Source of the DNA: Escherichia coli
GTDB lineage: Bacteria > Pseudomonadota > Gammaproteobacteria > Enterobacterales > Enterobacteriaceae
DNA: 64,000 bases
Assembly: GCF_041886205.1 (NCBI RefSeq)
Contig: NZ_CP169029.1
Direction: 5' to 3' (one strand)
The translations under genes and the position numbers were made by a program. The notes beneath the pieces are model-generated. The model was not told the origin of the DNA. It made no database searches and worked only from the letters and a program-made list of their open reading frames with translations. This document shows, in pieces, positions 54,093 to 57,423 of this stretch (positions within the stretch are counted from its first letter, which is position 1; each line of letters begins with the position of its first letter).

Positions 54093-55376
54093 TTAGTCTT
54101 TAGCTGTTGCATTTTGTTTATGAAACAGTTCACGGAACACCGGATAAATATCATCCTGGTCGCGGATGTGCTGCATCGCAAAGTTGTCGAAAGTAGATTG
54201 CAGATGCTCATATTCTCGCCACAATGTCTGATGTGCACGACGGGTAATTTCGATATAGCTGTAATAACGAACAACAGGTAATAATTTTTTCGCCAGGATT
54301 TCATGGCAAAGCGGAGAGTCATCGGCCCAGTTATCGCCGTCCGATGCTTGTGCAGCGTAAATATTCCACTGTGCCGGGTTATAACGCTCTTTCACTACCT
54401 CATCCATCAGTTTCAGGGCGCTGGAAACAATGGTGCCGCCTGTTTCCTGCGAGTAGAAAAACTCATGTTCATCGACTTCTTTCGCCTGGGTATGATGGCG
54501 GATGTATACGACTTCCACGTTCTTATACGTTCTGCTGAGGAACAGATACAGCAGAATATAAAAACGCTTAGCCATATCTTTAGTGGATTGATCCATTGAA
54601 CCGGAAACGTCCATCAGGCAAAACATCACTGCCTGGCTGGAGGGATCGGGCCGCTTCTCGTAGTTCTTGTAACGTAAATCGAAGGTGTCAATAAAAGGGA
54701 CGCGTTCAATTTTGGCACGTAATTCTGCAATTTCTTTGCGCAGACGTTCCTCTTCCAGCAGTTGCGCAGGTTCACTGTTGCTGATGATGGCCAAATTCTC
54801 TTCCAGTGCATGAAGTTCCCGCCGCTTGCCTGCCGTCATGGCTGTGCGTCGCGCCAGTGAGTTCTGCAATGAACGCACAACGCTGATATTGGCCGGAACG
54901 CCGTTAGCGGTATAACCCGCCCGATGCGTTTTATATTCGGTCAGCTGGCGTTGTTGGTTTTGTTTCAGATTCGGTAAGGCCAAATCTTCAAAGAGCAGAT
55001 CAAGATACTCATCTTTCGAAATCTGAAAGACAAATTCATCCTGACCTTCACCATCCTGGCTGGCCTGGCCCTGACCACTGCCGGAACCTCCGCCGCCACC
55101 CTGGGGACGTTCAATTCGGTCGTTCTGGACGAAATGGTCATTGCCCGGATGCACGCGGTGGCGCAGACCGCCACGCCCCTGATGAAACATCGGTTCGCTA
55201 ATATCTTCCGTGGGAATGGATACGGATTCGCCGCTGTCGACGTCAGTCACCGAACGCTTATTAATGGCCTCGGAGATCGACTGTTTAATTTGCGCTTTAT
55301 AACGGCGTAAAAAACGCTGGCGATTCACCATGCTTTTGTTTTTGCCGTTCAGACGCCGGTCAATAAACCAGGTCAT
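54093..55376 (-). CDS. yeaH: DUF444/YeaH-family protein (vWA-like), partner of YeaG
   Basis: ORF track 427 aa; Gly-rich low-complexity segment; downstream of yeaG on same strand. Confidence 0.9.
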
Positions 55377-55440
55377 ATGCCCCCCGTACTACATTTGCCA
55401 ACTGTATGCTACGCCTGTGTTGCCGCTTCTCAGGCCCACG

Positions 55441-55475
55441 GTTCGCTGTCGTTGTAGGCCCGGTAACATGTGTAC
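55441..55475 (-). terminator. hairpin (possible attenuator) between yeaG and yeaH
   Basis: ggcccggtacacatgttaccgggcc palindrome in the 112 bp yeaG-yeaH spacer. Confidence 0.45.
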
Positions 55476-55488
55476 CGGGCCAGGGTTG

Positions 55489-57423
55489 TTAAGACGATTT
55501 ACGTACGCGCAAATACCATTCGCACAGTAAACGCACCTGTTTACGGGTGTAGCCTTTTTCCATCATACGGTCGACAAAGTCGTCGTGTTTCTTCTGCTCG
55601 TCGGTTGACGTTTTGGCGTTAAACGAGATAACCGGCAACAGCTCCTCGGTATTGGAGAACATTTTCTTCTCGATGACCGTGCGCAGTTTTTCATAGCTGG
55701 TCCAGTTCGGATTGCGTCCGCTGTTATTCGCTCTGGCGCGCAGTACGAAGTTAACAATCTCGTTGCGGAAATCTTTTGGATTACTGATCCCCGCCGGTTT
55801 CTCGATTTTCTCCAGCTCGGCGTTAAGAGACTCGCGGTCAAACAGCTGCCCGGTATCCGGATCGCGATACTCCTGATCCTGAATCCAGAAATCCGCGTAG
55901 GTAACATAACGGTCGAAAATGTTTTGCCCATATTCGGAATAGGATTCAAGGTAGGCCGTCTGGATCTCTTTGCCGATAAACTCGGCATATTTCGGGATCA
56001 GATAACCTTTCAGGAACTCCAGATAGCGTTCTGCCTGCTCTTGTGGGAACTGCTCGCGCTCAATCTGCTGTTCCAGGACGTAGAACAGATGGACCGGGTT
56101 TGCTGCCACTTCTACATGATCGAAGTTGAACACGCGGGAGAGGATCTTAAACGCAAAACGCGTCGACAGACCGTTCATCCCTTCATCGACACCGGCGTAG
56201 TCACGATATTCCTGATACGACTTGGCTTTGGGATCGGTGTCTTTCAGACTTTCGCCATCATAAACCCGCATCTTTGAATAAATGCTGGAGTTTTCTGGCT
56301 CTTTCAGGCGCGAAAGAATGGAAAAACGTGACAGTGTTTCGAGCGTGCCAGGGGCGCATGGGGCGTGAGTCAATTCACTGTGATTAAGCAATTTCTCGTA
56401 GATTTTGATCTCTTCGGAAATGCGCAAGCAATACGGCACCTTCACGATGTAAACACGATCGAGGAAGGCTTCGTTGTTTTTGTTATTACGGAAAGTGACC
56501 CATTCGGACTCGTTCGAGTGTGCGAGAATAATCCCGTTGAACGGCAGGGCGGAGATACCTTCCGTCCCGTTGTAGTTACCTTCCTGAGTGGCGGTTAACA
56601 AGGGATGCAGCACTTTAATCGGTGCTTTAAACATCTCAACGAATTCCATGATCCCCTGATTGGCGCGGCACAGCGCACCGGAATAGCCGTAGGCGTCCGG
56701 GTCATTCTGCGCGTAGTGTTCGAGTTTACGAATATCGACTTTCCCAACCAGCGCGGAGATGTCCTGGTTGTTCTCATCGCCGGGTTCCGTTTTGGCGATA
56801 GCAATTTGTTGCAGAATTGACGGCCAGACCTTCACTACCCGGAACTTAGTGATATCGCCACCAAATTCATGCAGGCGTTTTGCCGCCCACGGCGACATGA
56901 TGGTGCCGAGATAACGGCGAGGAATGCCATACTCTTTTTCCAGAATCTGCGCATCTTCCTGCGGATTGAAAAGACAGAACGGATGATCGTTGACCGGGCT
57001 ACGCTCACCGTTCGCGCTCAATACATAAATCGGTACGAGCTGCATTAATGATTTCAGTCGCTCAGCAAGCGATGATTTACCCCCACCCACAGGCCCCAGC
57101 AGATACAGGATTTGTTTCTTCTCTTCCAGCCCCTGAGCCGCGTGTTTCAGATAAGAGACAATCTGTTCAATCGCGTCTTCCATGCCGTAAAACTCTTCAA
57201 ACGCCGGATAACGTGCAATGACCCGGTTAGAAAAGAGTCGAGAAAGTCTGGGTTCCTGGGCTGTATCGACCATGACAGGCTCACCGATAGCCATCAATAG
57301 CCGCTCAGCCGCGTTGGCATAAGCACTGCGATCTTGCCGACAAGTGGTAAGAAACTCCTGCAGTGTGAACTCTTCGTCCTTGGCAGCTTCATATCGCTGG
57401 CGATAGTGATCGAATATATTCAT
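55489..57423 (-). CDS. yeaG: PrkA-family serine protein kinase YeaG
   Basis: ORF track 644 aa; P-loop LLGPVGGGKSSLAERL; PrkA architecture. Confidence 0.9.
   Translation of the reverse strand: MNIFDHYRQRYEAAKDEEFTLQEFLTTCRQDRSAYANAAERLLMAIGEPVMVDTAQEPRLSRLFSNRVIARYPAFEEFYGMEDAIEQIVSYLKHAAQGLEEKKQILYLLGPVGGGKSSLAERLKSLMQLVPIYVLSANGERSPVNDHPFCLFNPQEDAQILEKEYGIPRRYLGTIMSPWAAKRLHEFGGDITKFRVVKVWPSILQQIAIAKTEPGDENNQDISALVGKVDIRKLEHYAQNDPDAYGYSGALCRANQGIMEFVEMFKAPIKVLHPLLTATQEGNYNGTEGISALPFNGIILAHSNESEWVTFRNNKNNEAFLDRVYIVKVPYCLRISEEIKIYEKLLNHSELTHAPCAPGTLETLSRFSILSRLKEPENSSIYSKMRVYDGESLKDTDPKAKSYQEYRDYAGVDEGMNGLSTRFAFKILSRVFNFDHVEVAANPVHLFYVLEQQIEREQFPQEQAERYLEFLKGYLIPKYAEFIGKEIQTAYLESYSEYGQNIFDRYVTYADFWIQDQEYRDPDTGQLFDRESLNAELEKIEKPAGISNPKDFRNEIVNFVLRARANNSGRNPNWTSYEKLRTVIEKKMFSNTEELLPVISFNAKTSTDEQKKHDDFVDRMMEKGYTRKQVRLLCEWYLRVRKSS

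Follow-up and report, generated by a model that had tools for sequence, protein, structure and literature searches.

Introduction

The closest described counterparts of the element considered here are the repetitive extragenic palindromic (REP) sequences that lie between two genes of one operon. In work by Newbury and Higgins from 1987-88, the intercistronic REPs of malE-malF and hisJ-hisQ are said to stabilise the upstream mRNA. We have analysed a GC-rich palindrome that lies between yeaG and yeaH in a 64,000-nucleotide stretch of Escherichia coli DNA (contig NZ_CP169029.1, hereafter the window; positions are those of the window unless MG1655 is named). REPs are described as barriers to ribonucleolytic decay (PMC12306157). 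A related signature comes from Dar and Sorek 2018 (PMC6061677), who found steady-state 3′ ends at precise positions directly behind stable stem-loops without a U-tract, and gave evidence that such stems shield transcripts from polynucleotide phosphorylase (PNPase) and RNase II.

The yeaG-yeaH operon, its RpoS and RpoN/NtrC promoters and its control by SdsR are already known. Both the RpoN/NtrC-dependent and the RpoS-dependent promoters have been reported in PMC10954441, where the joint action of YeaG and YeaH during starvation of E. coli is also described as that of a ‘metabolic brake’, with levels that need managing for good recovery. The initial annotation of the window, made from the sequence alone, had suggested that the palindrome could serve as an attenuator or RNA processing site that sets the YeaG:YeaH ratio. 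Our analysis identifies it as an unannotated REP-derived intercistronic stem-loop, for which 3′-end evidence had been published but had gone unremarked. We consider it somewhat favoured, with a probability of roughly 55%, that this stem-loop is a barrier to 3′ exonucleases that stabilises the yeaG segment of the message after cleavage or termination further downstream.

Results

A stable hairpin directly past the yeaG stop codon

The features on which the argument depends are as follows.

55489-57423, minus strand: yeaG coding sequence, 644 aa, TAA stop included, with an AAA_PrkA N-terminal and a PrkA C-terminal domain; annotated as yeaG in E. coli RefSeq genomes
55377-55488, minus strand: yeaG-yeaH intercistronic spacer, 112 nt, identical to MG1655 1868843-1868954
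55457-55481, minus strand: hairpin GGCCCGGTA-CACATGT-TACCGGGCC, most likely REP-derived, starting 7 nt past the yeaG stop, with a REP-type tail CTAC(AAC) behind it and no U-tract
55451-55452, minus strand: Term-seq 3′ ends of yeaG, converted from MG1655 1868879/1868880 (window 55452/55451)
54093-55376, minus strand: yeaH coding sequence, 427 aa, DUF444 / YeaH-YhbH family
54060-54088, minus strand: canonical intrinsic terminator of the operon, an 11-bp stem then UUUUU, 4 nt past the yeaH stop

The palindrome GGCCCGGTACACATGTTACCGGGCC occurs once in the window, where the chance expectation is none even if three mismatches are allowed. As RNA it forms a GC-rich stem of 9-10 bp, and in a 37-nt context the predicted folding energy is -18.0 kcal/mol (z -3.7), a value that none of 200 shuffled sequences equalled. 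The strong palindrome and the exact 112-nt spacer length of the initial annotation are therefore both borne out, the former by the folding-energy check that had been proposed for it. The fold of the complete spacer is unremarkable (z -1.0) and that of the portion downstream of the hairpin gives z +0.95; as the spacer as a whole is not unusually structured, the fold signal can be assigned to the hairpin alone, and a structure spanning the entire spacer is ruled out.

Several other readings of the hairpin and its spacer were considered and rejected. The tail after the stem, UACAACGA, contains one U in 8 nt, and a terminator scan did not call the hairpin while it did call the terminator behind yeaH, which folds with -19 kcal/mol and z -5.5. 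An intrinsic terminator is thus ruled out, since the GC-rich stem is present but the U-tract is lacking. A described Rfam RNA family is likewise ruled out, since a search at permissive thresholds over 53900-57900 gave no match in the spacer and only two chance-level matches near the yeaH terminator. No sigma-70 promoter for yeaH was found by a scan of the spacer, and the conserved TTGGCA..TGCA box ahead of yeaH was rejected as a sigma-54 promoter because its GG-GC spacing is 7 nt, not 12. The MG1655 record does not annotate the hairpin as a repeat, and yeaG is not listed in the RepRanger supplements.

Published 3′ ends and transcript counts at the hairpin

The Term-seq data of Adams et al. 2021 (eLife, PMC7815308, Supplementary file 1) contain two curated dominant 3′ ends at this site, both on the plus strand of MG1655. 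One lies at 1868879, seen with 1211 reads in lysogeny broth (LB) at an optical density (OD) of 2.0, and the other at 1868880, seen with 762 reads in M63 medium at OD 0.4. Both are classed there as the ‘primary’ 3′ end of yeaG, and no yeaG 3′ end is listed in the curated data for LB at OD 0.4. In the window these ends sit 5-6 nt 3′ of the stem (...GGGCCUACAA). The 3′-end evidence at the hairpin comes from this one study. In the same curated tables a 3′ end after yeaH is found in none of the three conditions, despite the strong canonical terminator there. We also see that the only curated 3′ end of the operon is the one at the internal hairpin, and not one at the terminator at 54060-54088.

For nitrogen-starved cells, the DESeq2 baseMeans given by McQuail et al. 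2023 (PMC10954441, Supplementary Data 5) are 5327.6 for yeaG and 1791.6 for yeaH. Expressed per nt these values become 2.75 and 1.40, respectively, a step-down of approximately 2.0-fold that serves as a rough measure only, as baseMeans were not designed for comparison between genes. The outcome that the initial annotation had named as contrary to its proposal, uniform read coverage across the spacer with no 3′ ends at the hairpin, is not what the published data give, as 3′ ends do occur there.

The hairpin is most likely a relic of a dispersed REP class

Junctions between yeaG and yeaH were taken from 80 species-level Enterobacteriaceae genomes and the spacers were extracted, which range in length from 57 to 296 nt. 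At 55 of the 80 loci a GCCCGG..CCGGGC form stands at the same site as the E. coli hairpin, commonly with a CTAC tail, and at these REP-bearing loci the motif begins 2-12 nt past the yeaG stop, most often 7. The form found in Enterobacter, Citrobacter and Kluyvera, GCCCGGTGGCGC-N2-6-GCGCTTACCGGGC, was used to scan metagenomic contigs, and is present in at least 120 metagenomic stretches. Among the matches listed, six encode yeaG/yeaH; the remaining listed matches have many unrelated flanks, a common CTAC tail and often a 5′ A-run. The combination of unrelated flanks with a shared tail leads us to treat GCCCGGTGGCGC..GCGCTTACCGGGC followed by CTAC as a dispersed REP class. Members of the form GCCCGGTGGCGCTnGCGCTTACCGGGC followed by CTAC are very often preceded by an A-run, and their opposite strand would then read as a stem plus a U-tract, in the manner of a terminator.

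Of the dispersed class (GCCCGGTGGCGC..GCGCTTACCGGGCCTAC), the E. coli hairpin retains the CTAC tail and the outer stem, GCCCGGT..TACCGGGC, and has lost the inner GGCGC/GCGC stem of the class consensus. Its homology to the class is argued from same-site orthology with intact copies in sister genera. Of 5426 complete E. coli genomes, 5424 have a single yeaG-yeaH junction, and the hairpin occupies one place per genome by BLAST, a search in which a short query needs some 20 matching bases, so that very diverged copies could be missed. The window holds no further copy. The intact class consensus is present in 1024 of the 5426 genomes, at one (rarely two) places each. An active multi-copy REP in E. 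coli is rejected on this single place per genome by BLAST together with the near-absence of the intact class.

Judged by the properties that PMC12306157 gives for REPs, the hairpin is extragenic, palindromic with a stem-loop, and short, at 25 nt (approximately 29 nt with the CTAC tail) compared to 14-40 nt for the REPs of E. coli. The spacer is transcribed with the flanking genes, as both Term-seq 3′ ends and reads from RNA interaction by ligation and sequencing (RIL-seq) map to it. REPs are also expected by the same source to be multi-copy, which the E. coli hairpin is not, and for this reason we class it as a relic of REP origin, not as a family member still active in E. coli. Overall, the comparison of sequences suggests that the palindrome is most likely a degenerate REP relic that has been at the yeaG-yeaH junction since before the genera of the Enterobacteriaceae diverged. 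The picture of a dedicated regulatory element, implied by the initial annotation, gives way to that of a decayed REP with same-site orthologues and a dispersed parent class.

Conservation of the stem

The first 48 nt past the yeaG stop fold better than shuffled sequences in 79 of 81 sequences, with a median z of -2.8, compared to -0.8 for a coding control. For 43 orthologous hairpins, RNAalifold returned a 9-bp consensus stem with double pair-preserving changes at four pairs, such as U-A in 19 sequences and C-G in 17, and a register-anchored count of pairs agrees with this covariation. Six E. coli lineages share the same 9-bp arms and differ in the loop, which reads CACATGT, CACATGC or CGCATGC. 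Unrelated hairpins are found at the same place in Buttiauxella, Kosakonia, Cedecea, Atlantibacter, Shimwellia, Yersinia and Erwinia. The homologue search yielded relatives of at least 86% identity, with the junctions of Vibrio, Pseudomonas and Bacillus lying outside the comparison.

A second REP and other insertions in the spacer

Downstream of the hairpin, the alignment of spacers reveals the remains of another element.

55412-55441, minus strand: decayed second REP, inverted (CCGTGGGCCTGAGAAG^CGGCA...), located by spacer alignment

In K-12 and in the window, about 11 nt are missing from the palindrome GTAGGCCGGAnAAGC..GCATCCGGCA of this second REP, and no palindrome is left. It is intact in E. 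coli E69/SCPM, Leclercia, Pseudescherichia and many genera, so the spacer is polymorphic at this point within E. coli itself. From these intact inverted copies we deduce that the ancestral spacer held a tail-to-tail REP pair, resembling a bacterial interspersed mosaic element (BIME); the two inverted REPs that define a BIME are not both present in K-12 or in the window.

The middle of the spacer is variable across the family, with a canonical REP GTAGGCCGGATAAGC..GCATCCGGCA there in many genera. In Citrobacter, Klebsiella, Cedecea and Raoultella, we see spacer insertions of around 120 nt with ...GTGAATCCCCAGGAGCGTACATAAGTACGTGACTGGGGTGAGCG... in them, which we take to resemble enterobacterial repetitive intergenic consensus (ERIC) elements, or intergenic repeat units (IRU). 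Insertion of small repeats seems to have a hot spot in the yeaG-yeaH spacer.

How the hairpin may act

In the explanation that we favour, the REP relic would fold in the yeaGH mRNA as a stable GC-rich stem-loop 7 nt beyond the yeaG stop. As it has no U-tract, it would not work as a classical intrinsic terminator, but would mark where a yeaG-only RNA has its 3′ end. A transcript of full length or longer would be cut or terminated further downstream, either in yeaH or in that portion of the spacer that is unstructured, and 3′-to-5′ exonucleases, PNPase and RNase II among them, would degrade back from there and come to a halt at the stem, with ends left 5-6 nt behind it. Shielded in this way, the yeaG segment would then outlast the yeaH segment, so that yeaG message comes to exceed yeaH message by approximately two-fold. 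An exonuclease barrier is favoured because a precise 3′ end behind a stem without a U-tract is the signature described by Dar and Sorek 2018, and such a barrier is also the part classically assigned to REPs within operons. We infer that the hairpin is the cause of both the step-down and the 3′ end, and that exonucleases stall there instead of transcription being terminated.

A number of points weigh against this explanation. The link of the hairpin to both the 3′ end and the two-fold step is correlative, and the size of the step carries the roughness of a comparison of baseMeans between genes. The lack of a 3′ end after yeaH may be a threshold effect, as the read counts of 1211 and 762 are low. 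REPs build up in transcribed intergenic gaps in any case, so the presence of the hairpin may be neutral. The covariation in the stem may come from turnover between REP subfamilies instead of from selection at the site. Dickeya and Rahnella have spacers of 34-36 nt with only weak stems, from which it follows that the operon does not need the hairpin.

The absence of a strong hairpin in these two genera would also suit an account in which the element is a slowly decaying REP, and the 3′ end a chance footprint of exonucleases, without a selected part in balancing YeaG against YeaH. Further points in its favour are the visible decay of the neighbouring second REP, with its 11-nt deletion in K-12, the REPs and 200-nt ERIC-like elements that have been inserted into this spacer in other genera, and the near-disappearance of the parent class from E. 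coli, with 1024 of 5426 genomes retaining it. We nevertheless judge a purely neutral relic to be unlikely. The outer 9-bp stem has remained intact and invariant in all sampled E. coli lineages while the adjacent REP decayed, a hairpin directly past the stop is found in 79 of 81 Enterobacteriaceae sequences, non-REP hairpins included, and the dominant 3′ end is a measurable molecular effect.

The mapped ends could alternatively be primary products of transcriptional attenuation, if a fraction of polymerases stops at or after the stem, either independently of a U-tract or with assistance from Rho/NusG. The position of 55451/55452, 5-6 nt past a strong stem, fits such a device, as does the 112-nt untranslated spacer, a possible entry point for Rho; REP/BIME elements are described as transcriptional attenuators in PMC12306157, and Dar and Sorek (PMC6061677) locate Rho utilisation (rut) sites just downstream of such stems. 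However, there is one U in the 8 nt past the stem and the consensus scan made no call, and the 80 nt past the stem are G-rich (27 G and 18 C), unlike C-rich, G-poor rut sites. The site is also absent from the bicyclomycin-sensitive regions on this strand, which were mapped in exponential-phase LB, where no yeaG 3′ end was recorded (PMC7815308). True attenuation is less likely than an exonuclease barrier, and we rate it as distinctly improbable. The proposal of an attenuator or processing site thus survives in part: 3′ ends do fall at the hairpin, but a canonical attenuator, with its U-tract, is not there.

Least plausible of all, and very improbable, is an effect on translation, whereby a REP stem lying closer to the stop than 16 nt would block the terminating ribosome and bring about mRNA cleavage, rescue and less YeaG: the stem does begin 7 nt past the TAA, the motif at REP-bearing loci does keep to 2-12 nt past the stop, most often 7, and down-regulation of translation has been reported for REPs closer to a stop codon than 16 nt (as summarised in PMC12306157), but a truncated yeaG RNA ending before or at the stop is predicted whereas the mapped end lies behind the stem, and yeaG RNA stands above yeaH RNA, not below it. 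Both the neutral and the translational account are compatible with stalling of exonucleases at the stem.

A conserved box before yeaH and its possible pairing with SdsR

The end of the spacer contains two further features.

55389-55403, minus strand: conserved box AGTTGGCAAATGTAG, complementary to SdsR nt ~17-33 (CUGCAUUAAUGCCAACU)
55380-55385, minus strand: Shine-Dalgarno-like GGGGGG, 3 nt ahead of the yeaH ATG; GGGGGG or GGAGGG is kept across loci

The last ~27 nt before the yeaH ATG (AGTTGGCAAATGCAGTACGGGGGGCAT) are almost invariant across the Enterobacteriaceae. RIL-seq recorded the chimera sdsR:::yeaG.yeaH.IGT, MG1655 1868803-1868944, in all three replicates at N- and in all three at N-24, with p 4.9e-28 (PMC10954441), and the conserved box falls inside this interaction region. 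The experimentally validated SdsR site is in the yeaG 5′ untranslated region only, separate from the intergenic region (PMC10954441). In a seed-restricted scan, the predicted duplex CUGCAUU..UGCCAACU / AGUUGGCA.AAUGUAG has an energy of -21 kcal/mol, which 9 of 200 shuffled targets equalled. Prediction with full-length SdsR was discarded, as it gave a meaningless long pairing no better than that of shuffled sequences. Pairing with SdsR probably explains the high conservation of the last part of the spacer.

These observations allow a broader model, about which we are doubtful, in which the spacer would be a two-part module for discoordinate control. During starvation, SdsR with Hfq would pair with the GUUGGCA..AUG(C/U)AG box that immediately precedes the ribosome-binding site of yeaH; translation of yeaH would be repressed, and the downstream RNA would be exposed to cleavage by RNase E or to Rho-dependent polarity. 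The REP-relic hairpin would then halt the resulting 3′-to-5′ decay at the end of yeaG, and so insulate yeaG from SdsR-triggered decay of yeaH. The model is compatible with the slightly larger rise of yeaH in an sdsR deletion, where protein rises by a log2 value of 1.06 for yeaH versus 0.83 for yeaG, and RNA by 0.55 versus 0.34, the latter not significant (PMC10954441). It is also compatible with the conditions for which the 3′ end was curated, minimal medium and stationary-phase LB, as opposed to exponential-phase LB, for which it was not. Were it true, the YeaG:YeaH ratio would be tunable and not fixed.

The flanking genes and their products

Two features of yeaG and its upstream region complete the description of the locus.

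57070-57096, minus strand: Walker A / P-loop GPVGGGKSS, YeaG aa 110-118, with Lys116
57527-57542, minus strand: sigma-54-type -24/-12 element TGGCATGAGAGTTGCT, a pattern match only, ~105-120 nt upstream of the yeaG ATG

The protein assignments of the initial annotation, a P-loop in a PrkA-type architecture for YeaG and a DUF444 partner in YeaH, agree with the profile searches. YeaG combines an AAA_PrkA domain containing Walker A (PF08298, E 1e-187) with a PrkA C-terminal domain (PF06798, E 9e-71), as expected of the PrkA family, and matches the NCBIfam equivalog PRK15455 over its full length with 1342 bits against a cut-off of 576. YeaH matches PF04285 (DUF444) with E 4e-191 over profile positions 2-418 of 418, and NCBIfam PRK05325.1-3 with 843 bits against a cut-off of 466; this full-length match, in a gene that adjoins yeaG, places it in the DUF444 / YeaH-YhbH family. 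The two genes are adjacent in 84 of 84 loci examined.

A PrkA-family homologue of YeaG has been solved (PDB 9xip, 9xiq and 9xir, ‘Serine protein kinase’, 692 aa, 30 chains; E 7.5e-51). Beyond this homologue, YeaG has a single sequence match in the PDB, to an AAA+ segment of a Lon protease (E 0.007), which is in line with the proposed Lon-like relationship. A YeaG K116A mutant does not complement (PMC4664914). The label ‘kinase’ is disputed for the PrkA family, between kinase, protease and AAA+ ATPase only: PrkA of B. subtilis showed Lon-like ATP-dependent protease activity and no kinase activity (PMC9512850), PrkA of B. anthracis showed neither activity (PMC13001217), and for YeaG of E. coli both autophosphorylation and phosphorylation of AceA are reported (cited in PMC9512850). 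For YeaH, a sequence search of the PDB gave no solved relative. Residues 256-260 of YeaH (window 54597-54611, minus strand) read DVSGS, a DxSxS motif like that of a metal ion-dependent adhesion site (MIDAS), and the C-terminal half of the protein has a weak VWA_2 match at this motif, below threshold at E 0.055. Taken from the sequences, there are hints that YeaG and YeaH are an AAA+ / von Willebrand A-type pair.

Upstream of yeaG, TGGCATGAGAGTTGCT is consistent with the reported NtrC/RpoN-dependent promoter; the pattern has one further match within the window. At the other end of the operon, at ~54119 on the plus strand (MG1655 1870212, minus strand), Adams et al. 2021 (PMC7815308) mapped Rho-dependent termination, sensitive to bicyclomycin, in a region that lies antisense to the yeaH 3′ end; this implies antisense transcription that enters yeaH from the cdgI side.

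Discussion

A separate yeaG RNA that ends at a hairpin, together with about half as much yeaH message, is of practical help in reading deletion and complementation experiments on this operon. It is useful, too, in estimating the stoichiometry between the AAA+ protein and the partner protein and in the design of reporter fusions. The hairpin also offers a clean example of a REP relic in which the stem, and a molecular effect with it, have outlived the family, now gone from the genome. It brings no new kind of mechanism to light.

As a gene pair, yeaG-yeaH(-ycgB) belongs with prkA-yhbH(-spoVR), and YeaG and YeaH of the window show no difference from that system, being those of the E. coli reference operon itself. 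With an intrinsic terminator or attenuator the hairpin shares a GC-rich stem directly past a stop codon, but it has no U-tract. It resembles the stems of Dar and Sorek 2018 (PMC6061677) in having a precise 3′ end behind a stem without a U-rich stretch; those stems stand at the ends of Rho-terminated units, whereas this one lies inside an operon, with a G-rich sequence downstream that is not rut-like.

The likeness to an operon REP/BIME extends further. Both are extragenic, transcribed, GC-rich imperfect palindromes with a GCCTAC-type tail, located between two genes of one operon in which the upstream RNA is the more abundant; both have a 3′ end just behind the stem and, for the hairpin by ancestry, a tail-to-tail REP pair. 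Unlike an operon REP/BIME, the hairpin is single-copy in E. coli, from which its class has essentially been lost; the inner consensus stem is gone, the partner REP has decayed in K-12, and it carries no annotation as a repeat. In short, the yeaG-yeaH hairpin is real but ordinary, a device of a known type that goes with more message for the first gene than for the second.

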